A DNA stretch of 64,000 nucleotides, taken from Puia sp. (lineage in GTDB: Bacteria; Bacteroidota; Bacteroidia; Chitinophagales; Chitinophagaceae). Under the pieces are notes generated by a model. That model worked only from the letters and a program-made list of their open reading frames with translations. It searched no databases and had not been told where the DNA came from. The stretch lies in NCBI GenBank assembly GCA_035946435.1, contig DASYZH010000353.1:2376-66375 (forward strand), given 5' to 3'. The number at the start of each line of letters is the position of its first letter. Positions within the stretch are counted from its first letter, which is position 1. Positions 35,179 through 59,638 of this stretch are shown in pieces. The translations under genes were made by a program, and so were the position numbers.

Positions 35179-36747
35179 ATGCACAGATCACTTCTCGCCG
35201 TACTCCTCTTATCCGGCTCCCGACTCGTAGCACAACCTTATAACCCTTCGATCGACATTCAGCATTATGATTTTTTATTAAATCTCAACGACAGCAATAA
35301 TACCATCCGTGGGGTAGCTACCGTCAACCTTGAATTCACCCAAACCGTTGACCAGTTTGCCCTCGACCTCACCAAAAAAACCGATGACGGCAAAGGCATG
35401 ACCGTCAGCTCCGTCTCCGAGAACGGGGACCAGGTCCCCTTCGTCCAGGACAGCCAAAAGCTCTTTATTCACAGCCGTGGCGCCGCAGGACAGAAACATA
35501 CCTACCTCATCGTCTATAGCGGTATTCCCGCCGACGGCCTCATCATTTCCAACAACAAATTCGGAAAACGCGGCTTCTTCGGCGACAACTGGCCGAACCG
35601 CGCGCACAACTGGCTGCCGTGCGTAGACCACCCCTCCGACAAAGCCACACTCGAATTCCGCATCATCGCCCCCGACCATTATACCGTTGTCGCGAATGGC
35701 GCCCTCGATAAAGAGACGCAGCTTTCAGGCCATCGCAAGATGACGATCTGGAAGGAATCCGAACCGCTCGCGCCCAAGATCATGGTCATTGGCGTCGCGG
35801 ATTTCGCCGTCGACCATCCCGGTGACGCCATGGGCGTGCCCGTTTGGAATTACGTCTACCAGCAAAACAAGGAGGAAGGCTTTAAAAGCTATGCTGTCGC
35901 CTTGCAGATCCTTCCTTTCTATATCTCGCACATCGGCCCCTACCCCTTCGAAAAAGAAGGCAATGTCCAGTCCAAGACCCGCTTCGGCGGCCTCGAGAAT
36001 GCCAGCGCCATCTTCTATTATGAGAATTCGGTAGAGTCCCCCGGCGTCGAATCGCTGATGGCCCACGAGATAGCCCACCAATGGTTCGGCGACGCCGCCA
36101 CGGAAACCGGGTGGAAACACCTTTGGCTCAGCGAAGGCTTCGCCACCTATATGACCCTCTGCTATCTGGAAAACAAATATGGAATCGATACACTCAAAGC
36201 CAGCCTCGTGCAGGACCGTAAAAAGGTGATCCAATTCGAAAAGACCAGGCTCACGCCCGTTGTCGATACATCGATCAGGCAGGATTACATGCAGCTCCTC
36301 AACCCCAACAGCTACGAAAAAGGCGGCTGGGTGCTCCATATGCTACGCCGCCGCATCGGTGATGAATTGTTCTGGAAAGGCATCTCGACCTATTATTCCA
36401 CGTATCGCAACGGCAATGCCTCCACGGACGATTTCAGGAAGATCATGGAACTGGTCAGCAACCAGCGGCTCGACACCTTCTTCCACCAGTGGCTCGAGGA
36501 GCCCGGCCACCCGCATGTGACCATCACCTGGAAATACGACCAGGATAAAAAGGTCGCCGCCATCGACATCACGCACACCGGCGACTTCCAGTTTCCGCTG
36601 GAATACGCCATCGACGGCACATTGTATCACGTCGCCATCAGGGACGCCGAGACCCACGTCGACCTCCCTCTGCCGGAAAAACCCAACACGCTCACCCCCG
36701 ATCCCAACGTCAACCTCCTGGCGGATTTCGAAGTCACGAGCCAGTAG
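35179..36747 (+). CDS. M1 family zinc aminopeptidase
   Basis: Signal peptide, GGLEN, HEIAHQWFG, WLSEGFATY and YEKGGWVLHMLR. Confidence 0.93.
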   Translation: MHRSLLAVLLLSGSRLVAQPYNPSIDIQHYDFLLNLNDSNNTIRGVATVNLEFTQTVDQFALDLTKKTDDGKGMTVSSVSENGDQVPFVQDSQKLFIHSRGAAGQKHTYLIVYSGIPADGLIISNNKFGKRGFFGDNWPNRAHNWLPCVDHPSDKATLEFRIIAPDHYTVVANGALDKETQLSGHRKMTIWKESEPLAPKIMVIGVADFAVDHPGDAMGVPVWNYVYQQNKEEGFKSYAVALQILPFYISHIGPYPFEKEGNVQSKTRFGGLENASAIFYYENSVESPGVESLMAHEIAHQWFGDAATETGWKHLWLSEGFATYMTLCYLENKYGIDTLKASLVQDRKKVIQFEKTRLTPVVDTSIRQDYMQLLNPNSYEKGGWVLHMLRRRIGDELFWKGISTYYSTYRNGNASTDDFRKIMELVSNQRLDTFFHQWLEEPGHPHVTITWKYDQDKKVAAIDITHTGDFQFPLEYAIDGTLYHVAIRDAETHVDLPLPEKPNTLTPDPNVNLLADFEVTSQ

Positions 36748-37804
36748 TGGACAACATATTCAGGCATGCTTTCATATACCCCAATGCATAGGCCATTCCA
36801 GCGTACCAGGGACCTTCGCAATTCATCTGCGGGGTATGATCGGGAATGAGCACACCGTCGAACTGCGATGCCTGCAATATCTTAAGCACAGCGATCATAT
36901 CGATGTCGCCCTCGTCAAGGAATACCTCTTTATAATGGGGGACCTTACCCTTTACATTCCGAAAGTGGACATATGCAATATCCCGGGCAAACTCCCGTGT
37001 TGCGGCATAAATGTCGCCTTCGGTCATTTCGGCGATCGACCCCAAACAGAACTCTAGCGTATTGGCGCGGCTGGGCCGCATGTCGAGCAACCGCCGGTAC
37101 AATTGCGGCTGGTAAACCAGGCGGGGAGTTCGCCGGATAAGCGGCATGGGCGGGTCGTCGGGATGTGCCGCCAGACGAACACCGGCTTCTTCCGCTACAG
37201 GAATCAATTCGTCGAGAAAATACTGTAGCCTGTTCCAAAGCTCACCGGACGAAATTTCAGGAAGATGACCGGTGGGAGCGTTCTCATCATAGATCATATT
37301 CCAGACCATCCCGTTGGGGATCGGCCGGTCGTCTACACCATTCATTCCCACCGATACTGCATTGCCCCGGGCAAAGGGTCCTGTGATGCGGCTGGAGACT
37401 CCCGCCAGGCTGAAATTGTAGCCGATGATCGGGATGCCGGCCTTACCGACGTTGCGGATCATTTCCTTGAGCCCTTCCGCCTGTTGGGCTTTCCGTGGGC
37501 CGTCGAGCAGGATATCGTACCAATGGGCGGGGTCGAAGTTCTCGATGGCTTCCAGTTCCAGGCCCGCATCGTTTATCTCTTTTTTGAGGGCGATGAGCTC
37601 TTGCGCGGTCCATAGGTTTTTTGCATCGCCCGCAATTCCCCAGCCTCCGTCGTCGCCAATGGGCTGGTTATTCCTATTCCCCTGGTTTCCCTTGTTGAAA
37701 TAGTCTACCAGGTGAACGACCAAATGAGTACAGCCGCATTGTTTTGCAAAGTCGAAATGTCTCCGGTCAAGCATGTGCCGGTATAGGCCCAATCCAAGTT
37801 TCAT
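36734..37804 (-). CDS. Mannonate dehydratase (UxuA)-like sugar-acid dehydratase
   Basis: LEAIEN, YNFS, HPDDPP, LEFCLGS, HFRNVKG, FLDEGDIDM and PDHTP. Confidence 0.8.
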   Translation of the reverse strand: MKLGLGLYRHMLDRRHFDFAKQCGCTHLVVHLVDYFNKGNQGNRNNQPIGDDGGWGIAGDAKNLWTAQELIALKKEINDAGLELEAIENFDPAHWYDILLDGPRKAQQAEGLKEMIRNVGKAGIPIIGYNFSLAGVSSRITGPFARGNAVSVGMNGVDDRPIPNGMVWNMIYDENAPTGHLPEISSGELWNRLQYFLDELIPVAEEAGVRLAAHPDDPPMPLIRRTPRLVYQPQLYRRLLDMRPSRANTLEFCLGSIAEMTEGDIYAATREFARDIAYVHFRNVKGKVPHYKEVFLDEGDIDMIAVLKILQASQFDGVLIPDHTPQMNCEGPWYAGMAYALGYMKACLNMLSTTGS

Positions 37805-37834
37805 TTTGAATGATTTATTTGCAAAAGAAGTCGA

Positions 37835-39049
37835 TCACAAAATGCCATATTTCTTGAAGGCAGCCGTGCTGGACATCCCGTTCTCTATTTCTTTCCGGAC
37901 CAGCTTTTCACCTCTTGCTTTTTCAAGGGCGCGAACGGTGACGGCTACTTCATGCTGCCGGGGTACGATAACCACCCCGTCCATATCGCCGAATACGAGG
38001 TCGCCCGGCATGATCGTGACGCCACCGATCTCGATGCGACAGCGATAGTCGACCACTTGCGTCCGAACGCCGGAGTCCTGGGCATAGCGGCCCCTGCTGA
38101 AAACGGGCCAGTTTTGTTCGAGCACCCGGGGAGTATCGCGATAATACCCGTTGATAACGGCGCCGGAGGCGCCGCGGATCCTGGCGGTAGCTGTAAGGAT
38201 CTCTCCCCAATAGGCGCAACGCATTTCCCCACCGGTGGCAATATATATTTCGTTCTTTTCGAGTTGGTCGAGCGCTTCCGTGAGTTTCCCGAACGGCGTT
38301 TGCTGAGGCCCGTATACGTCGATCATCAGGACAGGCATAGCTCTGCCGATAAGTTTGTCCTCGATACGGACCGGCTGGATGGGTTGGGGAAGAAATTGGT
38401 GATAACAACCCAATTCGTCGAGGATGTCACCAACCACCGGGGTATAGAGTTCGGATCTGTATAACGAGAATAACTCCTCATCGTCATTCCATGACGGCCG
38501 CTGAAGGTTTTTGTGTGTTGACGTTTCTATCATTTTTTTGGAATTATCGATTGACTTATAATTTTCAAGGCTGGTCCCGTTGCTTTCGACCGCACGCATT
38601 ATTTTTTGCCGCAGGTCCTCTTTTTCCGCCGGGGATAATTGCCGGAAGACGAAATCTCCCAGGTGGGTGTCATTGCGTTCGACGATGATGACCGAGGCCG
38701 TTTTGTCCATCGCGATATTGTGCCAGGTGCCGGCAGGGATATTATAGGTGATCCCGGGCCTCATCAGGATGCATTCGTAGTCGAGCTTCCCGTTTTCACC
38801 AGGCGCCCCCGATGAGTCGAGCTTCCCGTTTTCACCGGGCGCCCCCGAGGGATGGGCGGCGATGAGCACGGCCGATCCCCGAAGGAGGATAAACACCTCG
38901 TCGGTAAGCCGATGCATATCGATCTTGGCAATCCCCGCCAGGTCCTGTTCATCGAGGTGATTTAGCTGGGCCACCTGCCATCCCGCCCGGATCAAAAAGG
39001 GATCGTATCCGGGGCCGGCATGTTCGTATTTTTCGATTTTTGATTTCAC
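37835..39049 (-). CDS. Cupin domain fused in frame to an RraA/HMG-aldolase family domain
   Basis: Likely GTG start at 39049. Cupin motifs: [22 protein letters not shown]. RraA motifs: [37 protein letters not shown]. There is a possible second ATG at 38533. Confidence 0.75.
38779..38848. repeat. In-frame tandem duplication, 36-bp period ([11 protein letters not shown] x2)
   Basis: AGTCGAGCTTCCCGTTTTCACC(A/G)GGCGCCCCCGA at 38779 and 38815, with one mismatch. Confidence 0.9.
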
Positions 39050-39053
39050 GGGC

Positions 39054-39848
39054 TTATTTTTTTGGTCGGGGATCATATGGGATCGTGGTTTCCTTGTAAC
39101 CGCCATCGACGTACAGCTCCGTGGCGGTGAAATAGGCCGCCTTGTCACTGGCGAGGAAGGCACAGGTCCAGGCGACATCCTCCACCCTGCCGACACGCCC
39201 CATGGGAATCCAGCCATTGAATTTATCGCGCCCAAAAGATTCAATTTCGTGCCGGTTCATCTCGGTCTCGATAGCGCCGGGCGAGACGGCGAGCACACGA
39301 ATATGATGTTCGGCCAGTTCCAGCGCGAGACACTTGGTCATCATATTCAGACCCGCTTTGGCGGAACAGTAGTGGATCAGCCCTTTGCGGGGGATCTTAT
39401 CATGGATGGAGGAGATGTTCAGGATCACGCCGGTGTTTCGCGGGATCATCCTCCTTGCTGCTTCCTGGGCACAAAAGAAGGCTCCCCGCAAATTTACATT
39501 TAAAACCCGGTCCCATGTTTCGGGATCGAGGTCTACCGCGTGTTCGACCGTTTCGCAGCCGGCATTATTAACCAGGATATCGATTGTGCCATGCGTATTG
39601 TCGAAATCGCGGAACATCGCCAGGACCTCCGGCTTATCTGAGATGTCCGCGGCGAAGGCATTTGCTCTGACCCCATAACGCGCGTTTAGCTCTTTGGCGA
39701 GATCAAGGGCGTTTTGCTGATCCTGGTAATGGTTGATCATCAAATTCGCGCCGCAGGCAGCCATGGCGTGAGCGATGCCCGCTCCGATCCCCCGGCTTGC
39801 TCCGGTGATCAGTACGTTCTTATTTTTGAGATCGATGGTATTTTCCAT
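39054..39848 (-). CDS. SDR oxidoreductase, glucose/aldose 1-dehydrogenase-like
   Basis: [27 protein letters not shown] and PGAIET. The HDKIP..HY pattern resembles Bacillus glucose 1-dehydrogenase. Confidence 0.85.
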
Positions 39849-39865
39849 AAACAAGGTGGTGTCGG

Positions 39866-41077
39866 TTATGCTTTCGTTGTGGTTTGATCAAGAAATCCCC
39901 GGACCCGGGCTTCATCCCAGCCGCAGACCTCCCTGAGTATTTCGGCGGTATGTTCACCAAGGAGGGGCGCAGGCCGGCGGACCCCCGCAGGGGTCTTACT
40001 GAACGATACTGGGATGCCGGTCGTCGCAACTTTACCGGCGGTAGGATGATCATAGTTTATGATCATTTCATTATGCAGCACCTGCGGGTCTACGACCATT
40101 TCCCTGAAGCTGTTGACCTGGGAGCACCAGATATCGTGCTGGAGCAGCAGGGCCAGCCATTCATCGGTGGTCCGGGTACGGAATACGGCTGCGAAGTCGG
40201 CGTAAATGGCGTCGCGGTCCTCGATGATATTGTTGCCGGCGTATTTTTCGGCGTCATATTTCGTGATGCCCATGATCCGGGCCAGCGCACGAACCGAATT
40301 CATGCCGATCGCGATGAAGCTGTCCCGGGTGGGATACAGGCCGTAGGGTGCGCCAAGCCATGGATTCGGGATACCGCTGCTGCTTCTCTCGGGGTTCTCG
40401 CCTTTGCAGAGATAGGCGGTGATCTCCTGGGTATGAAAGGCAATGATGGAGTTGAGGAGACAGGCGTCGATGCGCTGTCCCTGCCCCGTTTGTTCCCGGT
40501 AGTAAAGGGCTGCCAGTACGCTCTGCACGATAAACAGACTGGTAAGCAGGTCGGCCTGACCGACCGCAGTGACGACCGGCAGCTCGCCGCGCCGGCCGTT
40601 GAGATAGGCGCCGCCGGCGAGAGACTGCGCCAGCAGATCCTGACCCGGGCGTTTTTGGTAGGGGCCGTCGCTCCCATAGCCGGAACTGGCGCAATAGATG
40701 AGACCGGGATTGGAAAGTTTGAGCGTTTCGTAGCCGATCCCCAACCGATCCATGACCCCGGGCCGAAAATTCTCGATCAGGATATCGCACCGGGAGATGA
40801 TCGCCCGGGCGGCCTCCAGACCTTGTTCGGATTTCATGTCAAGGGCGATACTGCGTTTGTTGCGATTGAAACCCAAAAAGGATATGCTTTCGCCGGCCGG
40901 GTAGAGATTGCCGTAGGCATATTTCCGCATCCAGTCGCCGGCAGGCGGCTCGATCTTGACGATCTCGGCGCCCATATCGCCGAGCATCTGGGTTGCCCAG
41001 GGGCCCTGTACGAGTTGGGTGAAATCGGCTATGCGGACACCAGCCAATGGCCCCTTGTTGTTATTTTCTTTTTGCAT
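39866..41077 (-). CDS. Family III CoA-transferase (CaiB/BaiF)
   Basis: LAGVRIADFTQLVQGP, NRNKRSIALD, ENFRPGVMDRLG, GQDLLAQ and APLLGEHT. Confidence 0.93.
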   Translation of the reverse strand: MQKENNNKGPLAGVRIADFTQLVQGPWATQMLGDMGAEIVKIEPPAGDWMRKYAYGNLYPAGESISFLGFNRNKRSIALDMKSEQGLEAARAIISRCDILIENFRPGVMDRLGIGYETLKLSNPGLIYCASSGYGSDGPYQKRPGQDLLAQSLAGGAYLNGRRGELPVVTAVGQADLLTSLFIVQSVLAALYYREQTGQGQRIDACLLNSIIAFHTQEITAYLCKGENPERSSSGIPNPWLGAPYGLYPTRDSFIAIGMNSVRALARIMGITKYDAEKYAGNNIIEDRDAIYADFAAVFRTRTTDEWLALLLQHDIWCSQVNSFREMVVDPQVLHNEMIINYDHPTAGKVATTGIPVSFSKTPAGVRRPAPLLGEHTAEILREVCGWDEARVRGFLDQTTTKA

Positions 41078-41078
41078 A

Positions 41079-42245
41079 TTATTTGCCGTTTAATGTGCGG
41101 GGAAAGTTAGACAATACCTGATTGCCCTCCCCGGTTACCAAAATATTGTCTTCTATCCGCAGACCGCCCATTCGATCGATGTAGACACCGGGCTCGACTG
41201 TGACAACCATGCCCTCCCTGAATACGCCCTCGGAATACGGCGACAACACTTCTCCGGGATCATGATAGCGGAAGCCAACGTGATGTCCAAGCGCATGGTT
41301 GAACTTATCGCCGAATCCCGCATCGCGGATGATGTTGCGTGCCGCGGCGTCAACCTGCCGCATCGCCATGCCCGGGCGTATCAAATGGATGGCCGCCGTC
41401 TGTGCCCGGCTCACCGTATCGTACAAAGATTGTTGTTCAGGGCTGGGTTCACAAGGCAGCGCCGTGCGGGTAATATCGGCCCAATAGCCGTTTACACAAA
41501 CACCCATTTCAAGGAGAACGAAGCCTTCGCTTCGGATGACCTTCCCGGTACTCCTGTTGAACCTGCCGGCGTCGGCGGTATTGAGGCCGGACTGCACCAT
41601 CGGCCATGCTTTTGCAAAGCCGATTCCGTCTCGGTCAATCGTTTCCTGGACGGCCAGTTCGATGAGGCCGGCGAGCCGGGCCTCGGAATGTCCCTTAACT
41701 ACCTCCGCATAGAATTCCCTAATGGCTATTCCCGCCACCTCGTGCGCCAAATGTAAGCCGGCAACATCGGTTGGACTCTTATATTCGTAGAGCCGGAGCA
41801 AATCGGAAGTGATGTCCCGGAAGCCGCCTGCAAGACTGGCGAACTGTTGGACGAGATCGGCCGGCAGTGGTGGCTGCTCCCCGGACATCCGGCAGGGGGC
41901 GCTGCCGCCGATGGATGGAATATAGGAGCAGGGCAGTCGGGTAAGATCCTTCAGCCGCAATACATCAGCCATAAGTTTATAAAGGCAGGGCCAGGGATCT
42001 TCGCCATTGTGCACGCCCCACGGGAATCGCCGGATCTCGATATGCTGCGGCAGACAATCATCGGGCTCCAACTCCGGCACAAAGAGTACCGGTTCACCAT
42101 CTGCCGTATAGAGCAGTACGGACAGGCCCCAGAGCGGCATATAGCCGAGCATCATCACCAATTCATCGGGACGCCAGAAGACCAGGGCTGAAAGCTGGTG
42201 GCGGCGCAGGAGCCGATCGGTTATCTCTTTTCTGTATCGATCCAT
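41079..42245 (-). CDS. M24 (Xaa-Pro peptidase / pita-bread fold) family enzyme
   Basis: ADITRT, HALGHHVG, VTVEPGVY and GGLRIEDN. The first metal ligand appears to be Glu (LLEMG). Confidence 0.85.
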   Translation of the reverse strand: MDRYRKEITDRLLRRHQLSALVFWRPDELVMMLGYMPLWGLSVLLYTADGEPVLFVPELEPDDCLPQHIEIRRFPWGVHNGEDPWPCLYKLMADVLRLKDLTRLPCSYIPSIGGSAPCRMSGEQPPLPADLVQQFASLAGGFRDITSDLLRLYEYKSPTDVAGLHLAHEVAGIAIREFYAEVVKGHSEARLAGLIELAVQETIDRDGIGFAKAWPMVQSGLNTADAGRFNRSTGKVIRSEGFVLLEMGVCVNGYWADITRTALPCEPSPEQQSLYDTVSRAQTAAIHLIRPGMAMRQVDAAARNIIRDAGFGDKFNHALGHHVGFRYHDPGEVLSPYSEGVFREGMVVTVEPGVYIDRMGGLRIEDNILVTGEGNQVLSNFPRTLNGK

Positions 42246-42248: not shown

Positions 42249-43019
42249 CTACTTTGAATTCTTTTCTGTGAATTTCTTTATGAGATCCTGAGCTACCGGG
42301 TGGTTGAACAGTTCGATCACGGCTTCTCCTTCCTGATCCAGCCGGGTCTCGAAGGGCAGGCCGATCGCCGCCGGAGTGAGCATGGCCTTGATCGCCTTTG
42401 TTGAAATGCGCGGTCTGCGTTGAAGCTTTTGCGCAAGCGCGAGAACGGTGGCCGGAAGGTCTTCGCCGGCCGGAGTATCGTATACGATCCCCCAATGATG
42501 CAGTTGGGCAGCCGGGTACGAACCTCCAAGCAGGAGCATCTCTTTTGTCCGGTTGACTCCTACCTTTTGCAGCAGCCGTTGAGCACCGCCGCCGCCGGGG
42601 ATGAGTCCGAGATGGATCTCCGGCAGGCCCATGGAAGCCGAGACAGCGGCAACGATAAAGTCACAGGCAAGCGCGATCTCGAAACCGCCGCCCAGGGCAT
42701 ATCCGTTGACAGCGGCGATAAAGGGAATTTCCGCCGTTTCGATAAGCGAGTAGAGCTGACGTCCCTGGCGCTGGAACCGGACGAACTGGTCGTTAGTCTG
42801 TGCGGCATATTCTTTGATATCGGCGCCCGCCATAAAAGCGCGACCCTTGCCGGTGATAACGGCCACGTCGATGTGTTTGTCCTGTATGATGGCCTGAAGC
42901 GCGGCGATGATCTCGTCCATCATGCGGCGGTTCATGGCATTGAGCTGGTCCGGTCTGTTAAAGGTCAGGGTTGCGATGCCGGCTGTGACGGTATATTCGA
43001 TGGTCTCAAATGATTGCAT
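42249..43019 (-). CDS. Enoyl-CoA hydratase/isomerase family protein
   Basis: LTFNRPDQLNAM, AFMAGADI, GYALGGGFE and LPEIHLGLIPGGGG. Confidence 0.93.
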   Translation of the reverse strand: MQSFETIEYTVTAGIATLTFNRPDQLNAMNRRMMDEIIAALQAIIQDKHIDVAVITGKGRAFMAGADIKEYAAQTNDQFVRFQRQGRQLYSLIETAEIPFIAAVNGYALGGGFEIALACDFIVAAVSASMGLPEIHLGLIPGGGGAQRLLQKVGVNRTKEMLLLGGSYPAAQLHHWGIVYDTPAGEDLPATVLALAQKLQRRPRISTKAIKAMLTPAAIGLPFETRLDQEGEAVIELFNHPVAQDLIKKFTEKNSK

Positions 43020-44157: not shown

Positions 44158-44168
44158 ACTATTTTTTG

Positions 44169-51235: not shown

Positions 51236-53926
51236 TTAATTCGTCTTAAAACCGGGATCGAACTCAAAGGTTTCTATGGCATACCTGCCGACATGCACCC
51301 GTTGTCCGCCCCGTTGAGGCGCTATCGGCTGCGGCTGTTGTTCCAGGATATTGGTCTTCTCCAAGCCACGTACACCACGGAACCAATCCAGCCGGATGTC
51401 CGACTCTTTGCCTTCGAGGTCGTAGCACCGGAGAACGATCTTGTCGAGATCATCGTTCTTCTTTATCGTAGAGATCACGATGTTGTCGGCGTCCGTGCCT
51501 GCGAAAGAAAGGCTTTCCGGCAATACGGCCTGTACGGCTGCGGGGCGAGACCGGTTGTCCGGGATATTGTCGACGACCAGCAGTGGTTGAGCGGCTTGTT
51601 TGCCCGCTTTCCAGTTCGGATGCCCCTGGCCGGAGCAAAAGGAGAAGGTAAAATGGTGGTCTCCGCGCTGAAGATACCAGTTGCCCAGCGGGCTTTCGTT
51701 ACAGGTTCGCCGGCTTGCCAGCAGCAGCGGTTGCAACACGGGCTTTGAGTTCTTGCCTGTGGGATCGATCCAGTCGAATACGGCGACATCGGAGCTAATC
51801 GCGACGGAGCCATTGTGATCCCAGGCGCCAAACCAATCCTGTACTTCGCGCGGATGGATCTCCCGGCAGGGTGTGTTATAGACCTGATCCGCTTTCGAGA
51901 ATCCCGCTGCGCGGGGCAATTCCGTTTTCCCAACCTCTACGATGCCCATCGGCACTTCGTAGTCTACATGTCCGCTATCCAGGTCCAGCGGGAAAGCCAT
52001 TCGGAATTCCCGCGAATGTTCGCCGTTGAAACCGATGATATCGGCCTGGAAATCGATGCGCGGGAGCATGGTATAGAATATGACCCGTTGCCGCACTGTA
52101 CAATTCCTCCAGGGGTGAATAGTTTCGATTACCGTCCGTACAGGGCCATTTTCTACGAGACTCCAATCCGTACCATATTGGTTCATGCGCTCAAATCCTT
52201 CCATCGTGGGTTGTTGCACAGCCGTAAATTCGCCCGCGCCGTTGCCAACGGATTGCATCGAAAACACCTCGCCGGCGAGCAATCCGCCGGGGAGTATCCA
52301 CTCACGTGACAAGCGCCGGTCAAATATAGAACTAATGCCGCCTTTCGCAAGTGTGATCTTGTAAAACCTGGTATCGACAACGTTACCGGTTATGTTGATC
52401 CGCAATTTCTGATCGTCTGCCGCCCTGCCGGGGATAAGATAGAAGGTGGAATAGCCTATGGATGGGATATCCCGTGCGACAAACGCGATGGTAAGGGTGG
52501 ATTGGGGTCCTTTGTCGGGAGAAGAGACTACCTGGTAATCCACCGGATCGCCCTTGGCATCGACCAATTGAAACTCGTTGTCATAAATACCTTCCATGTC
52601 GATCGTGGCCTCGACGGGGTCGGTACGCGTCCAGGACAAGGGATTGAACACGACAATGGGTTTGCCAATGGATTTGAATTTGATGGCATGTACAATATCG
52701 TCAAGCTTTGTTTTAAGGATCGAGTCCCCTACCCTTGCGGCCAGTGCATAGCTGTTCGCGTAGATGGCATCCGTGATGTCGCCATGTACGCCGCCCCAAC
52801 CATGATCCGGATAGATCGCGTGCTGCCAGGCCTGGTCGAAGGCGGCTTGTGGGTAATCCTTGAAATTCCCCTGCAGGACCGCGGCAACGGCCGAGAACTT
52901 CTCCGCCGCAGTAAGCACTCTCGAGGAATGTCTTGCTGTCTTGATAGCCTTCTCATGGGCAGGGCCGTGAATATATAGCCAAAGGTTCGGGTATTCGCCC
53001 TGAACGCTGTCGATATGACCGGAAGAGGAGGTCAGCGCGGCAAGCGCTTCGGTACCGGTGGCATAGCCGATGGTCGGGAGCGGCTCATGCCGGTCCTTCA
53101 ACTCGGTATTCCATTGATTGAAAAAGCCATCGTAGTTGGGAGGCACGGAAAAATCCTGGGAGTTGAGCCAGATGAAGTTTGGGGGAAGCTGGTGGTCCTT
53201 ATAGTATCCCGCCCATTCCGCCAGCCGGGCTTTGACAACAGCCGCGCGCTGTTCATTTGTGGCGGCATGGATCAAGGGAATGGATGATTCGTAGTATTGA
53301 CCGGGTGTCCAGCAAGTAACAAAGCTGCCATCCGGGCTGAACCATTTATAGACACCGGGCTGGAACCTGCTGAATTGGAGGAACCGGATCCCTGCTTTCG
53401 ACCAGATCTGGGCCGTCTGGAGGGATCTGCCCGGGACATCTTCCGACCACGCCGTGATGAAGCGGCCGCCGGGGATCATTTTCTCGAGCTTTTTCTTACC
53501 GTAGTATACCTCGCGGATAAGTGCTTCTCCTTCGTAGAGACCCTCATAGGGTTGATTGTAGGTAGCGCCCCATTCCATTCTTCCCTCCCGGGTATATCGG
53601 ATGATATCCGGTAACCGGTCGGGATGACGTTCGACATACTCATAGAAGTTGAGCGCATTCTCTACGGAAAAACAGAACTTATCATTCTGTTTTAGTCTTT
53701 CGAGGGCCGGCGTGATCATGAATTTGTCGCGAAACCGGCGGCAGCTGTCAGGGGTATCCATCCAGGCGATGTCCTGGTGTGAAGAGGGCACCACGAGGAC
53801 CTTGCCACCGCTAAAACTTTCGTAACCGTTGGACACCCGGGCGCCGCCGTCCTGGCCCAGGCTAACCCGGGACACAAGGACGGACAGCAACCAAACCAGG
53901 CCTGCGAATCTTAAACCTTTTCTCAT
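51236..53926 (-). CDS. GH38-like glycoside hydrolase (paralogue 3)
   Basis: Signal peptide, SSHQDIAW, SEDVPG, WLYIHGP, YPDHGWGG and VFNPLSWTR. Confidence 0.82.
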   Translation of the reverse strand: MRKGLRFAGLVWLLSVLVSRVSLGQDGGARVSNGYESFSGGKVLVVPSSHQDIAWMDTPDSCRRFRDKFMITPALERLKQNDKFCFSVENALNFYEYVERHPDRLPDIIRYTREGRMEWGATYNQPYEGLYEGEALIREVYYGKKKLEKMIPGGRFITAWSEDVPGRSLQTAQIWSKAGIRFLQFSRFQPGVYKWFSPDGSFVTCWTPGQYYESSIPLIHAATNEQRAAVVKARLAEWAGYYKDHQLPPNFIWLNSQDFSVPPNYDGFFNQWNTELKDRHEPLPTIGYATGTEALAALTSSSGHIDSVQGEYPNLWLYIHGPAHEKAIKTARHSSRVLTAAEKFSAVAAVLQGNFKDYPQAAFDQAWQHAIYPDHGWGGVHGDITDAIYANSYALAARVGDSILKTKLDDIVHAIKFKSIGKPIVVFNPLSWTRTDPVEATIDMEGIYDNEFQLVDAKGDPVDYQVVSSPDKGPQSTLTIAFVARDIPSIGYSTFYLIPGRAADDQKLRINITGNVVDTRFYKITLAKGGISSIFDRRLSREWILPGGLLAGEVFSMQSVGNGAGEFTAVQQPTMEGFERMNQYGTDWSLVENGPVRTVIETIHPWRNCTVRQRVIFYTMLPRIDFQADIIGFNGEHSREFRMAFPLDLDSGHVDYEVPMGIVEVGKTELPRAAGFSKADQVYNTPCREIHPREVQDWFGAWDHNGSVAISSDVAVFDWIDPTGKNSKPVLQPLLLASRRTCNESPLGNWYLQRGDHHFTFSFCSGQGHPNWKAGKQAAQPLLVVDNIPDNRSRPAAVQAVLPESLSFAGTDADNIVISTIKKNDDLDKIVLRCYDLEGKESDIRLDWFRGVRGLEKTNILEQQPQPIAPQRGGQRVHVGRYAIETFEFDPGFKTN

Positions 53927-55413
53927 TTTAAATTGGGATTTATTTCTACCTCGGCGAGGGGGATCGGGAATTGAAGATTATTGGTCTGAAAGGTCGCCCC
54001 CGAGGGCAGTGTAAAGCCTACAGCATTCACCATGGTATTATGAACGGCGTCGAAGATCTGGTGCGTACGGACGATATCGTACCAATTCTGATTTTCGCCA
54101 CAGAGCTCCCACCATCTTTCTTTCCACACTTCGTTTTGGAAATCCGACTGGCTGAGACCCGACAAGGCGGCGAGCCCGGCCCTGGTGCGAATAGCGTTGA
54201 GAGCAGCGTAAGCGGCAGCATTGGGTGAGCCGTCAGCCGCGTTTTGAGCCTCTGCATAGGTCAGCAGGATATCGGCATAGCGGATGACGGGAAAGTTCTT
54301 GCTCGAAAAGGGTGCGTTTGTGAGCAGGCCTTTATCGAAGAACTTATAGAGGCTCCAGGGGAAATTGTAGGCGGAGCCGCCAACGGTGATGTTGTTGAAA
54401 AAGAAGCCATTTTGTTGGCCACGCAGGTCGGCAGGGTCGTAGGAAGCGACGAAGCTGGTTTGCGGTACGAGCAGACCCTGGTCGTTGTTAACAGCGCTGG
54501 CACTGATAAAAGTTACGCCTTTGGGGCAAAGCTCGAGCGGAAGAATATCGTTGACGATATAGGAGCTGAAATTGATGTCCCATATATGTTCCTGGGTGTT
54601 GTCGAAAGCCGGGTTGTTGAGCTTGTCAAACCAGGTCATATTGGCATCCGTTTGAAAGAGGGAGAAATTCCCGCTGTTGATCACCTCTAAAGCCTTGTTA
54701 CGTGCCAGGGCGTAGTTGGCCGTCTCATTGACAGGATAACCGGCCATGGCAAGATAGACTTTTGCCAGCAGGGCCGATGCGGCGCCGGTCGAAACACGTC
54801 CGGAACCGGCGGGAGTGGCTCGCATGCCGCTCGCTTCGGCCGCCTGCAGGTCGGGAACGATCTCCTGCTCATAGATATCTTTTACCGGGGTCTTTGACAG
54901 CAAGCCGTCGCTGGCGCTCTTTGTAGGGGTTAGTTTCAACGGCACGTCGCCAAAGATGTTGACGAGCGTATAATAAAAGTACGCCCGCAGGAATCTGGCC
55001 TCGCCGATGAGCGCGCTTCGTTGCACGGTATCCATAGAAATACCCGGCACATTGGCGATTACGAGATTGGCGGCTTCGATGCCCTGGTAAGCGGAAGAGA
55101 ACCATTGTTCCAGCAGGGGGCTGGCGGAGTTCTGGCGAAGGTTGTAGACGTTGACCAGGTCGTTACCTTCGGACACCGTATTAAATTGACCGGTGACCAG
55201 TTCCAGCATCGCATAACTGTAGTTACGACCACCGCCCGTATAGGGAACATAAAGATTGGCGTAGATGCCATCGACGGCAGACTGCGCATCCTCGGCGGTC
55301 TGATAATATTGGTTAGTTGTAATTACAGACTTAGGATCTTCTTTCAGCCATTTTTTACAGCCCGGGAAGGCGATGATCGCTATGATGAAGAGAGCTATAT
55401 TCTTCGATTTCAT
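53923..55413 (-). CDS. SusD/RagB family lipoprotein
   Basis: Lipobox AFPGC, GEARFLRAYFYYTLV, GRVSTGAA, IRYADILL and ERWWELCGE. Confidence 0.95.
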   Translation of the reverse strand: MKSKNIALFIIAIIAFPGCKKWLKEDPKSVITTNQYYQTAEDAQSAVDGIYANLYVPYTGGGRNYSYAMLELVTGQFNTVSEGNDLVNVYNLRQNSASPLLEQWFSSAYQGIEAANLVIANVPGISMDTVQRSALIGEARFLRAYFYYTLVNIFGDVPLKLTPTKSASDGLLSKTPVKDIYEQEIVPDLQAAEASGMRATPAGSGRVSTGAASALLAKVYLAMAGYPVNETANYALARNKALEVINSGNFSLFQTDANMTWFDKLNNPAFDNTQEHIWDINFSSYIVNDILPLELCPKGVTFISASAVNNDQGLLVPQTSFVASYDPADLRGQQNGFFFNNITVGGSAYNFPWSLYKFFDKGLLTNAPFSSKNFPVIRYADILLTYAEAQNAADGSPNAAAYAALNAIRTRAGLAALSGLSQSDFQNEVWKERWWELCGENQNWYDIVRTHQIFDAVHNTMVNAVGFTLPSGATFQTNNLQFPIPLAEVEINPNLK

Positions 55414-55424
55414 TTTTTCTTTTT

Positions 55425-58400
55425 TTAGAGATTTGCGGTGATGCCGACGGTGAAGGTCCTGGGACGGGGTGAGCCATAGAATTCGACACCCTGTGAAAAG
55501 GTCGAACCGCTGAAGGTGCTGACTTCAGGATCGAAACCGCGATACTTCGAGATCAGGAAGAAGTTATTTACGTTGCCGTATACCCGCAGGCCGGACAAGC
55601 CCAGCCTTTTGGATTGCTTTTCCGGAAAGGCATACGAACAGTTGATGCTTTTCCCTCTTATGAAGGACCCATCTTCGACCCAACGGCTATCCATGAAGAA
55701 GGGCAGGTCGGTACCCCAGGGATCGACATTCGCAAAGCGAAGGGCCGGGACCATCGTGTTTTGATTTTGCGGGGTCCAGGCATCCCTGAGGATGGTGGAA
55801 TAGCTGTTGGCATAATATTGCCGGTCTTCCAGTGTCAGGGTCGAGACGTTCATGACCTTGTTCCCGTGCCGGATCATCACGTCTGCGCTTAAGGTCCAGT
55901 TGTGATAGCGGACGGTGGTCGTCAGATCCAGCTCATATTTGGGAAACATATTGCCCAGCACCATGGCGTCGCTGTTGTCGAAAACGTGGTCGCCATTGAC
56001 ATCCAGACGTTTGATATCACCCGGTTTCTTGCCATACAATGCAGCTTCGGCAGCTTCTTTTGTACCCCAGACCCCGATACGTTTGAAGCCCCAGAAATTC
56101 CCGAGTGGTTTACCCACCTGCAGGATATTGGTCTGGCCGAGGAAGTTTGGTCCGGGATAGATATCCGCGTTGGTGGTACCCAGGGCCAGTATTTTGCTTG
56201 CATTGGTCGAGAATTGGGCGCCGAGGCTCCAGGTGAGATTTGCTGTACGCAACACGTCTCCATTGACCGCCAATTCAAAACCCTGATTCTGGAGACTGCC
56301 GATATTGGTGAATACGGACGAGTAGCCGGTGACCGTGGTCACGGGTACGTTGAGGAGCAGATTGGTAGTTTTCTTCTTATAGTAATCGGCCGTCGCACTC
56401 AGGCGATCATCGAGCACTTTAATATCCAGGCCGAGATCGGCCTCCGCCGTTTGTTCCCATTTGAGGTTGGGATTGGGGATGCTCACCGGCGCGGTGCCGC
56501 GAACGATCTGGTTGTCCATTGCAATCGTGTAGACACCAACATTACCCAGAGACGAGTAGGGGGGAATTTCCGAATTACCGGTCAATCCGTAGCTGCCCCG
56601 GAATTTTAAGAAAGAAATAAAGCCATTGTGGGCGAGGAAATTCTCTTTGGAAGCGATCCAGCCCAAGGCGCCCGATGGAAAGAAGGCGAACTTGTTGGCA
56701 TCCCCGAATTTGGATGATCCATCATACCTGCCGGTGAACGTCAGCAGGTATTTTTCGAGATAACTGTAGTTAAGCCTGCCGTAATAGGAGTTGAGTTTGT
56801 AATTACTATAGCTGGACAGGGGGGTTCCGGGCACGGAGCCGGCGCTGAGGTTGTTGAATTGATAAAAATCGGTTGAGAATTCCGTGGCGCTGGCCGTAAC
56901 ACCCTCGGTGGTGGAAGACATCCAACTGCTGCCGAGAACCGCGTTCAGGTGATCGTTACCGGTAAAGGTCCGATCATAAGTTAAATAGTTCTCGACCTGC
57001 CAGTAATTGGTCCGGGTGTCGCCTACCGAGGCCTGGCCGTTGGTAGATGCCCCCATGCTTTCCAATTCCTTACTCAGGTAAAAATTGTTCTTTTGAGAAA
57101 ATATCTGCGATGCATAGGTCGACTTGAGGGTCAGTCCTTTCGCAAGCCGGATATTGGCATAGAGATTCAGCAGCACCTGATCTGTGAGATAGATATTGGT
57201 GAAGTTCTGCAAAATACGCACCGGGTTCTCCGCCGGATATACACCCGATTTCGTGTGGTTGCCCGAAGCATCGAAATTGTATCCGAACTGATCCAGGCGG
57301 CTCCAGGTGCCGTCCGGGTATTTTACCGGGAAGATCGGCAGCATTTCGATCATCATACGGGTGGGCGTCATGCCGCCGACCCCGTAGTCATCGAGTTGAT
57401 TGGTGTTGATCTGGTTGTAGGCGATGTCCCCGCCCGTAGTCAGCCAGGGACGAAGCGTTTGCTCGGTGTTGTAGCGAACACTGAGCTTCTTATAGTAAGT
57501 ATTGAGCAGGATACCCTGATCATCCTGGTAACCGGTATAGAGGCCCGATTTCGATTTTGTCGTGCCTGAGGTAAGTGAAACAAAATGACGATGAGAGATC
57601 CCGGTTTGGGTGGCTTCCTTCTGCCAGTCCGTATTGTAGATCGGCTGTTCGTTGGAATTGAACAAGAGCGGGTAATCGGCATGGAGATCGGGCAGCGGCC
57701 CGCGATCCGGGTTGTAAGCCCAGGCACGGGTAAACCAATCCATCCAGCCTTTGGAATCCAGCATGCTCATCCTCCGGGCGAGGACATTGGCGCTGACACT
57801 ACCGTTATAAGCTATGCTGAAGTCGCCGTTGCGGGCTCTTTTGGTAGTGACGATGATGACCCCGTTCGCGCCCCTGGCTCCATAGATCGCGGTCGAAGAC
57901 GCGTCTTTGAGTACATCCACGGCTTCGATATCGGAGGGATTGATCGACTGGAAATCGGCGCCTACGATCCCGTCGATGACGAATAGCGGCGAGTTGGAAG
58001 CCGAGATGGAGTTGAAGCCGCGGAGATTGACGCTGATCCCGCCGCCGGGACGGCCGGAGTTGTTGTAGATACTGAGGCCGGGCACTTTACCAGAGAGCGC
58101 CTCCAGCGGGTTGGAAGTGATCCTATCCGCCATATCGGAGGCTTTTACCGAAGCAACGGAGCCGGTTACATCCGCTTTTTTCTGTGTACCGTAACCGATA
58201 ACGACTACATCATTCAGGACGCTTGTCCTTGGCACCAGTGCGACCTGCACCGCGCCATTGCCATGGACCAGGACCGTTTGCTGCTGGTATCCCGTAATGC
58301 TGAAGATAAGGGCGGCGCCATCGGTCGCCTCGATGGAGAATTGGCCACGTTCGTTTGTTGCGGTGCCCCTTTGGGAGCCCTTGATCGTTACGTTTACACC

Positions 58401-58550
58401 GCGTAGCGCAAGGCCGGTGCTGTCGGTGACGGTGCCGGTGACATGTGTCGGTGTGCGTTGCCCGGCGGCATTAAAACAAAGGGCGAGAGCGAGACTAAAA
58501 AAACAGAATGTTTTTAAGATCCGGGGGGGAGCTTTTCTTTCTCTTTTCAT
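55425..58550 (-). CDS. SusC/RagA TonB-dependent receptor
   Basis: VVVIGYGTQKK, VLKDASSTAIYGARGANGVIIVTTK, NPNLKWE and C-terminal YGSPRPRTFTVGITANL. Confidence 0.96.
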   Translation of the reverse strand: MKRERKAPPRILKTFCFFSLALALCFNAAGQRTPTHVTGTVTDSTGLALRGVNVTIKGSQRGTATNERGQFSIEATDGAALIFSITGYQQQTVLVHGNGAVQVALVPRTSVLNDVVVIGYGTQKKADVTGSVASVKASDMADRITSNPLEALSGKVPGLSIYNNSGRPGGGISVNLRGFNSISASNSPLFVIDGIVGADFQSINPSDIEAVDVLKDASSTAIYGARGANGVIIVTTKRARNGDFSIAYNGSVSANVLARRMSMLDSKGWMDWFTRAWAYNPDRGPLPDLHADYPLLFNSNEQPIYNTDWQKEATQTGISHRHFVSLTSGTTKSKSGLYTGYQDDQGILLNTYYKKLSVRYNTEQTLRPWLTTGGDIAYNQINTNQLDDYGVGGMTPTRMMIEMLPIFPVKYPDGTWSRLDQFGYNFDASGNHTKSGVYPAENPVRILQNFTNIYLTDQVLLNLYANIRLAKGLTLKSTYASQIFSQKNNFYLSKELESMGASTNGQASVGDTRTNYWQVENYLTYDRTFTGNDHLNAVLGSSWMSSTTEGVTASATEFSTDFYQFNNLSAGSVPGTPLSSYSNYKLNSYYGRLNYSYLEKYLLTFTGRYDGSSKFGDANKFAFFPSGALGWIASKENFLAHNGFISFLKFRGSYGLTGNSEIPPYSSLGNVGVYTIAMDNQIVRGTAPVSIPNPNLKWEQTAEADLGLDIKVLDDRLSATADYYKKKTTNLLLNVPVTTVTGYSSVFTNIGSLQNQGFELAVNGDVLRTANLTWSLGAQFSTNASKILALGTTNADIYPGPNFLGQTNILQVGKPLGNFWGFKRIGVWGTKEAAEAALYGKKPGDIKRLDVNGDHVFDNSDAMVLGNMFPKYELDLTTTVRYHNWTLSADVMIRHGNKVMNVSTLTLEDRQYYANSYSTILRDAWTPQNQNTMVPALRFANVDPWGTDLPFFMDSRWVEDGSFIRGKSINCSYAFPEKQSKRLGLSGLRVYGNVNNFFLISKYRGFDPEVSTFSGSTFSQGVEFYGSPRPRTFTVGITANL

Positions 58551-58606
58551 ATTAGCAGTTCATCCGTTAAAAAATATTGTTAAAAACCAATAGAGCCTTA
58601 GGCACA

Positions 58607-58640
58607 CAAAAATACCCGGCACATTAAAAATTTTCTACAA
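58607..58640 (-). promoter_or_regulatory. Putative Bacteroidetes sigma-A promoter for the PUL-2 operon
   Basis: Minus-strand TATTTTTG (58614-58607) matches the -7 consensus TAnnTTTG. A TTG lies about 23 nt upstream. Confidence 0.5.
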
Positions 58641-58759
58641 CTGAATTAACGAACATTTAAACTTTTTTAACGAGTTTTACAACAAATGAATCCCATCTGA
58701 ATAAAATACTTTTATAAATTACAAATTGTAATTTCGGCAGGATTTTAAAGCAGCTTCCC

Positions 58760-59638
58760 ATGAAGGCCCAACTGATCGAAGTAGGATTGCAAAAAGAACA
58801 AACTTTTTTTGTTAAAAAGCTTGACTGTGATCGCTTTACAACCCCTTTCCATTTTCATGAACTTTGTGAATTGAATTTTGTCGTAGAGAGTTCCGGCAAG
58901 CGGATCGTGGGAGACAATATCGCCAGCTTTTCGTCCGGCGACCTGGTGCTAATGAATTCGAATCTCCCTCATATCTGGTACAACGACAAGGATTACCTGG
59001 CGGACGAGAGCCGCGGGACCGCGAAGGCGATCGTGACCTATTTCGATACTCATTTCCTGGTAAACCTATGCAATGACGAACAATATTCGGTGAAGATCAA
59101 AAACCTGATGGAGAGGGCGAAGCGGGGAATCCGGTTCGTAGGAGATACGCAACAACATGCGGCCCAAAGGTTGCAAAATATCGCCGGGAAGCAGGGATTG
59201 GAGCGGCTCATCGATTTCCTGCACCTGATCCACTTGTTTATGGAAAGCGACGAATATGAATACCTTGCCACTTTCGGTTACAACAACTCCTTTAACGAAA
59301 AGGATACAGAGCGTATGAGCCGGGTTTACCAATACCTCATACAGAATTTCACGGAAAGCATTCCCCTGTCAAAGGTTGCGGCGATAGCGAACCTGACGCC
59401 ACCGGCCTTTTGCACCTTTTTTAAAAAACGCACCCAGCGCTCGTTCTCACGCTTCCTGAATGAACTGCGCATCGGACATGCGTGCAAACTTCTTCAAAAC
59501 GAAAGCCTGTCGATCTCGGATATATGCTATCTGTCGGGATATGAGAACCCCACGAATTTTAATAAATTCTTCAAAGAGATCACCCGGAAGACACCCTCTC
59601 AATATCGCAGGGAATTCTTTGATCCCTTAGAGAAATAA
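58760..59638 (+). CDS. AraC family transcriptional regulator (cupin + double HTH)
   Basis: FHFHELCELNFV...GKRIVGD, ANLTPPAFCTFFKK, RIGHACKLL and SGYENPTNFNKFFK. It is divergent from susC. Confidence 0.95.
   Translation: MKAQLIEVGLQKEQTFFVKKLDCDRFTTPFHFHELCELNFVVESSGKRIVGDNIASFSSGDLVLMNSNLPHIWYNDKDYLADESRGTAKAIVTYFDTHFLVNLCNDEQYSVKIKNLMERAKRGIRFVGDTQQHAAQRLQNIAGKQGLERLIDFLHLIHLFMESDEYEYLATFGYNNSFNEKDTERMSRVYQYLIQNFTESIPLSKVAAIANLTPPAFCTFFKKRTQRSFSRFLNELRIGHACKLLQNESLSISDICYLSGYENPTNFNKFFKEITRKTPSQYRREFFDPLEK

Follow-up and report, generated by a model that had tools for sequence, protein, structure and literature searches.

How does a soil bacterium use alpha-mannosides when the locus devoted to them holds coenzyme A (CoA) enzymes and no sugar kinase? 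The question is raised by a gene block of a Puia sp. (assembly GCA_035946435.1, contig DASYZH010000353.1), which lies within a stretch of 64,000 nucleotides referred to here as the window. Alpha-mannosides, present in fungal walls, N-glycans and algal mannans, are a major source of carbon in soil and sea, and the way in which free-living Bacteroidota burn mannose has largely been assumed. The locus consists of two separable modules: a five-step cytoplasmic core linked to glycoside hydrolases (GHs) of family 38, and a CoA add-on. The sequence evidence leans somewhat towards a reading in which the substrates are alpha-mannosides (oligomannose, N-glycan or alpha-mannan), and in which the released mannose is probably burned by an oxidative route without a kinase gene in the locus. 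The chemistry of the accessory CoA module is possibly new.

Organization of the locus

Genes were called from open reading frames (ORFs) and from Pfam and NCBIfam profile matches of the window proteins. These calls reproduce an arrangement described in an earlier reading of the same DNA (the original prediction): 13 co-oriented ORFs on the minus strand (36734–58550), joined by overlaps of 4–23 nt or gaps of 1–30 nt and placed opposite an AraC-family gene. The order is SusC, SusD, three GH38 enzymes, a major facilitator superfamily (MFS) carrier, a solute-binding protein (SBP)-like protein of the MalE type, a crotonase, an M24 metallohydrolase, a CoA-transferase of the CaiB type, a short-chain dehydrogenase/reductase (SDR), a cupin-RraA protein and a UxuA-like dehydratase. 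The upstream half has the marks of a polysaccharide utilization locus (PUL). SusC and SusD form an adjacent pair with an intergenic gap of 11 bp, and they are accompanied by secreted carbohydrate-active enzymes (CAZymes), the three GH38s with signal-peptide-like N-termini, and by the divergent AraC regulator. The AraC gene lies 209 bp from the SusC start, and its orthologues (51–74% identity) are neighbours of the cassette in congeners and also in the genomes with a minimal cassette described below.

Signal peptides were judged by eye from a charged n-region, a hydrophobic core and the presence of a lipobox Cys. The three GH38 N-termini resemble type I signal peptides and lack a lipobox Cys, in agreement with the secretion signals proposed earlier. 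No kinase, endo-glycanase or cytoplasmic GH was found among the genes of the 13-gene block by ORF calling and Pfam/NCBIfam matching, and the earlier statement that endo-glycanase and sugar kinase are missing from the block is thus confirmed from gene content. The view that a PUL is here physically joined to a cytoplasmic oxidative route, in a locus without a kinase gene, also stands. The MFS carrier scores 353 bits against an NCBIfam subfamily of sugar porters, for which the cut-off is 237.8; its closest equivalog is XylE, and it scores below the XylE cut-off. Scans of the locus for sigma-70 promoters and terminators returned only the background of shuffled sequence, sigma-70 models being uninformative for Bacteroidota. 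The source is a soil member of the Chitinophagaceae. Named relatives are Puia sp. and Flavitalea sp., and the sequencing runs that contain the window sequence are of soil-metagenome DNA only.

A core and a separable CoA module

Conservation was followed with the leaderless SBP-like protein as bait. A one-genome-per-species collection holds 532 stretches with a relative of this protein; the best 80 of the 532 were analysed with 10-kb flanks, and genes were counted from tblastn matches and ORF clustering. Across these 80 species loci the commonest partners are the SDR (66), the crotonase (62), the MFS carrier and the CoA-transferase (59 each), RraA and GH38 (55 each), and UxuA and a small cupin (53 each). 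A PF10282 lactonase is present in 48, LacI in 30, GH92 in 13 and M24 in 10. The set spans Chitinophagaceae, Flavobacteriaceae, Marinilabiliales, Cytophagales and Saprospiraceae. The usual order in Flavobacteriaceae (including Maribacter, Arenibacter, Algibacter, Flagellimonas and Ulvibacterium) is GH38, RraA, MFS, cupin, SDR, SBP, crotonase, lactonase, CoA-transferase, UxuA and GH38. Variant cassettes occur in Marinilabiliales (Carboxylicivirga, Labilibaculum, Draconibacterium), in Cytophagales (Fulvivirga) and in Saprospiraceae. Closer to the source, an orthologue of the CoA-transferase (79–81% identity) is found in two of 24 congeners, and both carry the whole block. The trio of MalE-like protein, CoA-transferase and crotonase extends further, to Chloroflexota and Firmicutes. 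The synteny is not a matter of chance: the whole block recurs in congeners, and most of it in dozens of species of other orders. The check proposed with the original prediction, a search for synteny across Bacteroidetes and other phyla, therefore came out in its favour, in that many genomes keep CoA-transferase, crotonase and SBP-like genes in synteny with GH38.

The relatives' loci also bear on the substrate. Companion CAZymes are GH92, GH85, GH130, GH76-like and GH63-like enzymes, which point to oligomannose, N-glycan or alpha-mannan. About 65 of 80 GH38 ORFs in these loci are secreted, and most of the other 15 resemble start-codon or truncation artefacts.

Searches that started from the M24 protein disclosed a smaller form of the cassette, and four genomes outside the SBP set were inspected. 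Pedobacter schmidteae, Flavobacterium gilvum, Mucilaginibacter sabulilitoris and Chitinophaga sp. Ak27 hold AraC, (SusC/D), GH38s, MFS, M24, SDR, cupin, RraA and UxuA. Identities to the window proteins are 64–70% for MFS, 50–59% for M24, 67–71% for SDR, 59–78% for RraA and 72–75% for UxuA. No gene for an SBP-like protein, a crotonase, a CoA-transferase or a lactonase lies within 10 kb of these four cassettes. Whole-genome searches found no SBP-like or CaiB homologue at all in three of the four, and the fourth has only a distant SBP–CaiB–CaiB paralogue locus. The window locus is this core with an SBP–crotonase pair inserted ahead of M24 and a CoA-transferase inserted behind it. Since the core stands alone in four genera, the CoA module is dispensable for the core route, and the idea of one complete pathway with a CoA branch is not borne out. 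Beside the minimal cassette of Chitinophaga sp. Ak27, genes of a conjugative element (integrase, primase and relaxase, 17646–21179 of locus L121) directly adjoin the mannose genes, a hint of cassette mobilization.

A variant cassette is seen in four Flavobacteriaceae loci (L032, L052, L054 and L082). They combine a divergent GH38, an SBP-like gene, a GH63-like (MGH1-like) gene and two UxuA-like paralogues with two SDRs, a lactonase and a FAH-family hydrolase, and lack crotonase, CaiB and RraA. FAH and RraA are almost mutually exclusive across the loci.

Proposed route

The core, read mostly by homology, would operate as follows. (i) Oligomannosides would be imported by SusC/SusD. (ii) The three secreted, exo-acting GH38 enzymes would free mannose in the periplasm. 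(iii) The MFS sugar porter would bring mannose into the cytoplasm. (iv) The glucose-dehydrogenase-like SDR would oxidize mannose to mannonolactone. (v) The lactone would be opened by the M24 protein, which in this lineage takes the place of the beta-propeller lactonase carried by others. (vi) The UxuA-like enzyme would convert mannonate to 2-keto-3-deoxygluconate (KDG). (vii) Finally, the RraA-like protein and the small cupin may cleave KDG to pyruvate and glyceraldehyde; alternatively, KDG may pass to a KdgK/Eda pair encoded elsewhere.

The add-on would most likely work in the manner of the carnitine pair CaiB/CaiD. The CoA-transferase would load CoA onto an aldonate-type, sugar-derived hydroxy acid. 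The crotonase would then perform a beta-elimination at C3 (or a hydration beside the thioester), giving an enol/keto 2-keto-3-deoxy acyl-CoA, and the CoA would be handed to the next substrate molecule and so recycled. Recognition of the sugar moiety would be supplied by the MalE-like protein. Either OH or an O-substituent could leave from C3; a speculation is that it is an O-substituent, methyl or glycosyl, beyond the reach of UxuA. Such a leaving group would resolve the redundancy with UxuA, and it fits the optional nature of the add-on.

The reading can be carried further, as a tentative proposal only. The trio would be a CoA-dependent sugar-acid system not recognized before, in which aldonate becomes aldonyl-CoA, the crotonase expels the C3 group to give KDG-CoA and CoA is recycled. 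Thioester chemistry can expel poorer leaving groups than metal-dependent dehydratases do, so that 3-O-substituted mannose might become usable, such as 3-O-methylmannose or a 1,3-linked mannobionate at its reducing end; the M24 protein would be a new kind of aldonolactonase.

Enzymes of the oxidative core

The SDR is probably an aldose (mannose) 1-dehydrogenase by its family matches. It scores 224.7 bits against the NCBIfam glucose 1-dehydrogenase subfamily (cut-off 215), and its closest structure is the glucose 1-dehydrogenase of Bacillus megaterium (4e-48). For the UxuA-like protein the closest structure is the mannonate dehydratase of Streptococcus suis (9e-36). A probable canonical uxuA lies on contig C207 of the same genome (an N-terminus and a 39% tblastn match), which makes the cassette protein look like a dedicated paralogue. 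ORFs resembling uxaA, uxaB and eda, named from their N-termini and one tblastn match, lie on a further contig. On contig C278 (1480–1929), an MFS-like fragment is accompanied by a second one, in another frame, that shares 60% identity with the C-terminal end of the cassette UxuA-like protein; the stretch looks like the decayed remnant of a second cassette copy.

The last step involves the least conventional proteins. In HMG/CHA aldolase an Arg-Asp pair is essential. The corresponding Arg313-Asp314 of the RraA domain is invariant in 56 of 56 homologues, and HMG/CHA-aldolase models match the domain well under their cut-offs. The His/Asp-Glu/His pattern of the cupin is mostly kept among homologues. 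Structure matches are to PDB 3d0j for the cupin and to 5ir2 and 3k4i for the RraA part. The AlphaFold 2 model of the two-domain protein is too poor for a structure search, with a mean predicted local distance difference test score (pLDDT) of 56.7 and values below 50 in the cupin part. The original prediction listed one cupin/RraA gene, which is present here; its fusion is peculiar to this assembly, as all relatives examined have two genes 7–47 nt apart. The cupin of this assembly also carries an 11-residue tandem duplication (two copies, around 38705–38770) that is absent from relatives. Fusion and duplication could represent either a real recent event or an error in a metagenome-assembled genome (MAG).

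Genes for PfkB and Eda close eight of the loci, and Eda and PfkB homologues occur elsewhere in the source genome. The cell as a whole may thus still use a kinase, despite the kinase-free locus.

Lactone opening: M24 or lactonase

The M24 protein is probably a stand-in aldonolactonase of the core, an assignment that draws on gene context. Among the 80 loci, M24 alone occurs in 10, the PF10282 beta-propeller lactonase alone in 48, and both together in none. In Flavobacteriaceae the lactonase occupies the slot of M24, between crotonase and CoA-transferase. Lineage does not fully explain the exclusivity: in the Chitinophagaceae, a Flavihumibacter locus (L029) carries a lactonase and no M24, and within Prolixibacteraceae a MAG locus (L045) has M24 and the related L044 a lactonase. 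No lactonase of known family (PF10282, SMP-30/SGL or Amidohydro_2) is found in the window locus, and a genome-wide search found no orthologue of the cassette lactonase in the source genome. The minimal cassettes would be without any lactonase unless M24 took that part. The original prediction had grouped M24 with the CoA genes; its presence in cassettes without CoA genes argues that it belongs to the oxidative core, which it tracks.

The metal site departs slightly from that of peptidases. Prolidase and aminopeptidase P use Asp, Asp, His, Glu and Glu. The window protein has E/D/H/E/E, so that four of five prolidase ligands are kept and the first Asp is replaced by a Glu conserved in the Bacteroidota subfamily. 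All NCBIfam peptidase equivalogs fall below cut-off for the protein. In Arenibacter palladensis DSM 17539 (L072, 11133–12956), a single ORF of 607 aa joins crotonase and PF10282 lactonase, for which the related A. troitsensis has two genes.

The CoA module and its partners

The catalytic residues of the add-on are fully conserved. The crotonase pair E114 and E134 is invariant in 63 of 63 cassette homologues and Asp176 of the CoA-transferase in 68 of 68, which suggests that the module is enzymatically competent. The closest structure to the CoA-transferase is that of succinate-hydroxymethylglutarate CoA-transferase (SUGCT; 1e-72), and the protein scores 138 bits against the NCBIfam L-carnitine CoA-transferase (CaiB) equivalog, for which the cut-off is 413. 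A CaiB–crotonase fusion in L095 was considered and rejected as a shadow ORF, since the match within the 637-aa frame is confined to its crotonase part.

The SBP-like protein is present as the original prediction had it, with the correction that none of 15 aligned homologues has a leader. It matches no NCBIfam model. These 15 homologues share 85 invariant columns, including WDHPRGY, DHPY, CPTDxWCxFLTLC and FGYTNYSR. The AlphaFold 2 model (pLDDT 91.8) resembles binders of sucrose, maltose, trehalose and sulfoquinovose in Foldseek searches, with a template-modelling score of about 0.8 and 14–18% identity. ATP-binding cassette (ABC) permease and ATPase genes are found neither in the locus nor in its Bacteroidota relatives, and the protein does not qualify as an ABC solute-binding protein.

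On what do the CoA enzymes act? The add-on is constantly accompanied by functions for importing a sugar (or sugar acid), for oxidizing sugar at C1 and for hydrolysing lactones, provided by several non-homologous families and found with varied GH families. One Chloroflexota locus (L090) has an ABC sugar importer, the SBP-like protein, an SMP-30-type (SGL) lactonase, CaiB, crotonase, SDR, Eda and PfkB, without a classical dehydratase. Two others hold SDR, CaiB, crotonase and SBP (L109) and M24, CaiB, crotonase and SBP (L115). Firmicutes loci combine tripartite ATP-independent periplasmic (TRAP) carboxylate importers with two CaiB proteins, crotonase and the SBP-like protein, to which L087 adds RraA and a family I CoA-transferase. 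The solved TRAP binding proteins closest to these loci are 4pfb, 4n6k, 4ovt, 4o8m, 4x8r and 4n8y, probably glycerol-phosphate or sugar-acid binders, which is a lead only. In Ulvibacterium marinum (L099, 15361–18738), UxuA is directly followed by a second MFS, an SDR (33% identity) and a CaiB (43–47%), and then by GH92. The same second MFS–SDR–CaiB set precedes GH92 in L046–L048, L055, L060 and L092, an arrangement that suggests entry of another sugar into this CoA chemistry. As the add-on tracks sugar-oxidation sets irrespective of the GH family present, a sugar-derived acid is a likelier substrate of the CoA enzymes than an aglycone.

The source genome has paralogous loci as well. Contig C343 (7786–19105) holds a paralogous SBP-like gene, two CaiB genes, an L-fuconolactonase-like Amidohydro_2 protein, a RhaT-like symporter, SusC/D and a probable Gfo/Idh/MocA-type dehydrogenase (a sequence motif and a weak NCBIfam match), with no crotonase. 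Contig C72 (about 27800–47900) holds a second PUL with sigma and anti-sigma factors, SusC/D, three secreted GH63-like enzymes, an enolase-superfamily dehydratase, a probable SMP-30-type lactonase (by inspection), two SDRs, a paralogous SBP-like protein (37%), MFS and RraA (66%). By its gene content this PUL is read as an oxidative route without CoA genes.

An oxidation module is present in 50 full-length loci. Of these, 37 combine the CoA pair with a dehydratase, nine have only the dehydratase, four only the CoA pair, and none lacks both. A form of the main hypothesis in which the CoA pair is a plain alternative to UxuA fits this table and L090, but not the retention of both in most loci.

Objections and alternative explanations

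Several points weigh against the scheme as drawn. The UxuA-like protein falls below both NCBIfam mannonate-dehydratase cut-offs (152.6 against 191 bits, and 111.9 against 199.6). The structures closest to the M24 protein are prolidases (1e-39). To our knowledge no M24 protein is a lactonase, and we know of no RraA-family KDG aldolase. MalE-like protein, CaiB and crotonase are not an obligate unit: SBP-like protein and CaiB occur without a nearby crotonase in C343, L110, L116 and L117, and the SBP-like protein occurs without any CoA gene in L032, L035, L052, L054, L064 and C72. If the CoA pair simply dehydrated mannonate, it would duplicate UxuA in 37 loci.

The prolidase kinship also opens the way to another account of M24, in which the protein would be a genuine Xaa-Pro peptidase or amidase of the cytoplasm that acts on remnants of glycopeptides or amino sugars, with the lactonase exclusivity a lineage effect. 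The essentially complete metal site and the glycoprotein nature of the substrates would agree with it. The account is nevertheless unlikely, since there is no peptide importer, M24 takes the position of the lactonase, the two exclude each other in two lineages (L029, and L045 against L044) and the minimal cassettes would be left with no lactonase. The MalE-like protein could likewise have a role that is not enzymatic, as a cytoplasmic binder of sugar or sugar acid serving as buffer, sensor or specificity subunit. This is a possible reading, short of the likelier ones: its fold and closest structures are all those of binding proteins and it occurs with and without CoA genes, set against 85 invariant columns with His, Asp, Cys and Arg clusters in homologues only 44–65% identical, and translational coupling to the crotonase by a 14-nt overlap.

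Two further proposals would give the CoA pair another substrate. The original prediction supposed that a small mannose-configured glycoconjugate is imported intact, its sugar oxidized and its aglycone or substituent handled as a CoA thioester; in such a model CoA-transferase, crotonase and M24 would degrade it. Neither kinase nor endo-glycanase is found in the locus, the MalE-like fold usually binds glycosides, and GH38 and a weak, sub-threshold Pfam MGH1-like match, both families with mannosylglycerate-hydrolase members, co-occur with the SBP-like protein. Intact import is, however, unsupported, given secreted GH38s here and in the relatives, a sugar-porter carrier of XylE/GlcP type and no cytoplasmic glycosidase. 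The aglycone part fares no better: CaiB co-varies with sets of sugar importer, dehydrogenase and lactonase irrespective of the GH family, and stands in Firmicutes beside TRAP carboxylate importers, and M24 occurs in cassettes without any CoA gene. The specific case of mannosylglycerate was rejected, as the GH38s score 48–104 bits against a cut-off of 1138 for the MngB (mannosylglycerate hydrolase) model and are secreted. The intact-glycoconjugate proposal is accordingly very improbable. Scarcely better placed is the idea that the pair acts on a C3 product, with D-glycerate (from glyceraldehyde or a 2,4-diketo-3-deoxy acid) becoming glyceroyl-CoA and, through the crotonase, a pyruvate equivalent, so that the route is fully kinase-free. 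Glycerate is a 2,3-dihydroxy acid suited to crotonase chemistry, the locus is kinase-free, and the FAH-type loci, which would yield glycerate, carry the SBP-like protein too; glyceryl-CoA has been proposed as an intermediate of deoxyribonate catabolism (PMC6365646). Yet the cassette has no conserved aldehyde dehydrogenase or second SDR, the FAH-type loci lack the CoA pair, and L090 joins the pair to KdgK/Eda, with pyruvate and glyceraldehyde-3-phosphate as products and no other dehydratase. The sugar-derived acid is retained as the preferred substrate.

Relation to known systems

Described mannan PULs feed mannose into phosphorylative metabolism. The D-mannose route of Thermoplasma, with the aldohexose dehydrogenase AldT and a mannonate dehydratase, is non-phosphorylative, as are bacterial routes for L-fucose, L-rhamnose and L-galactose. 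SusC/SusD mannoside PULs with GH38, GH92, GH76, GH125, GH130 or GH85 are known from Bacteroides thetaiotaomicron and Salegentibacter (PMC9213526). The uptake part of the window locus is, by its predicted proteins, an ordinary mannoside PUL. It shares SusC/SusD, secreted exo-alpha-mannosidases and a cognate regulator with PULs for alpha-mannan and high-mannose N-glycans, and the relatives' loci add GH92, GH85, GH130 and GH76-like enzymes. It differs from alpha-mannan PULs in having GH38 only, no endo-mannanase, and its own oxidative cytoplasmic pathway with CoA genes. The core resembles non-phosphorylative aldose pathways in its predicted logic, namely dehydrogenase, lactonase, dehydratase and C–C cleavage to pyruvate, with an SDR of the glucose 1-dehydrogenase subfamily and a putative dehydratase of the UxuA family. 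It departs from them in using M24 apparently as lactonase, in having RraA-like protein and cupin instead of enzymes of DHDPS, HpcH or FAH type, and in the extra MalE-like and CoA genes.

The likeness of the CoA module to CaiB/CaiD and to AcuN/AcuK appears to lie in protein families only. As in carnitine metabolism of Escherichia coli, a family III CoA-transferase stands beside a crotonase with conserved catalytic residues, a pairing by which a 3-hydroxy acid could be dehydrated while CoA is cycled. The module is set among genes for sugar oxidation and not for betaines, and caiA, caiC, caiE and caiT are lacking from the window. AcuN/AcuK acrylate detoxification and the M24-type dimethylsulfoniopropionate (DMSP) lyase DddP bring together the same three families (family III CoA-transferase, crotonase, M24). 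A DMSP/acrylate reading was rejected: M24 occurs with sugar genes where there are no CoA genes and is closest to prolidases, there are no DMSP or acrylate genes near the window locus, and the habitat is soil.

A precedent for CoA-bound sugar acids exists in deoxyribonate catabolism of Klebsiella michiganensis, in which the intermediates include sugar-acid CoA thioesters and a CoA-transferase lies within a cluster for sugar acids (PMC6365646). Its enzymes, which act on a 2-deoxy acid, are a CoA ligase, a thiolase and a 3-hydroxyacyl-CoA dehydrogenase; no crotonase, MalE-like protein or RraA figures in it. Full-text literature searches found no description of the present cassette, consistent with the earlier view of the locus as a candidate for an undescribed system.

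The locus thus defines a compact oxidative mannose cassette without a kinase of its own, in which two steps are apparently taken by unexpected families (M24, and RraA with cupin). The separate CoA module, whose MalE-like marker is present in 532 species genomes, accompanies genes for sugar oxidation in three phyla or more. Should it make aldonyl-CoA intermediates, carbohydrate metabolism would gain a new branch, and the solute-binding-protein fold would have found a new use. Natural strains with and without the module make the question directly testable; culturable bearers of the full cassette are Flavitalea sp. BT771, Ginsengibacter hankyongi, Arenibacter palladensis DSM 17539 and Algibacter pectinivorans DSM 25730, and of the minimal one P. 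schmidteae, F. gilvum and M. sabulilitoris.

Features of the locus and neighbouring genes

Table 1. Genes of the mannoside locus and its regulator, in window coordinates.
Feature	Position	Strand	Evidence and remarks
AraC-family regulator	58760–59638	+	Pfam HTH_18/HTH_AraC, weak Cupin_2; divergent from operon
SusC-like TonB-dependent transporter	55425–58550	-	Pfam CarbopepD_reg_2, Plug, TonB_dep_Rec_b-barrel
SusD-like lipoprotein	53923–55413	-	Pfam SusD-like_3, SusD_RagB; lipobox Cys at N-terminus
GH38 alpha-mannosidase a, secreted	51236–53926	-	Pfam Glyco_hydro_38N, 38C, 38C2; signal-peptide-like N-terminus
GH38 alpha-mannosidase b, secreted	48512–51214	-	Pfam Glyco_hydro_38N, 38C, 38C2; 37% identical to GH38a
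GH38 alpha-mannosidase c, secreted	45590–48502	-	Pfam Glyco_hydro_38N, 38C, 38C2; signal-peptide-like N-terminus
MFS sugar porter, inner-membrane sugar:H+ symporter type	44169–45593	-	Pfam Sugar_tr 9e-111
Cytoplasmic MalE-like (SBP fold) protein, add-on module	43006–44190 (start 44190 or 44157)	-	Weak Pfam SBP_bac_1/8
Crotonase-family enoyl-CoA hydratase/dehydratase, add-on module	42249–43019	-	Pfam ECH_1 2e-58
M24 pita-bread metallohydrolase, no signal peptide	41079–42245	-	Pfam Peptidase_M24; putative lactonase stand-in
Family III (CaiB/BaiF) CoA-transferase, add-on module	39866–41077	-	Pfam CoA_transf_3 2e-112
SDR, probable aldose (mannose) 1-dehydrogenase	39054–39854	-	NCBIfam glucose 1-dehydrogenase subfamily
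Cupin-RraA	37835–39076	-	Cupin ~38580–39076; RraA-like aldolase/decarboxylase-type domain ~37835–38533; Pfam RraA-like 2e-31
UxuA-family sugar-acid dehydratase, divergent paralogue	36734–37804	-	Pfam UxuA 7e-52

Downstream of the block, on the opposite strand, lie genes for an M1 peptidase and a molybdopterin oxidoreductase, which are not kept beside the cassette in relatives. The M1 aminopeptidase gene (35179–36747, plus strand) is convergent with the UxuA-like gene and overlaps its 3' end by 14 nt (36734–36747). Upstream in the window, a second PUL (9761–26894) encodes GH95, GH89 (NAGLU), SusD, SusC, a FecR-type anti-sigma factor, an extracytoplasmic function (ECF) sigma factor and a 1915-aa GH35-GH92-LamG fusion.

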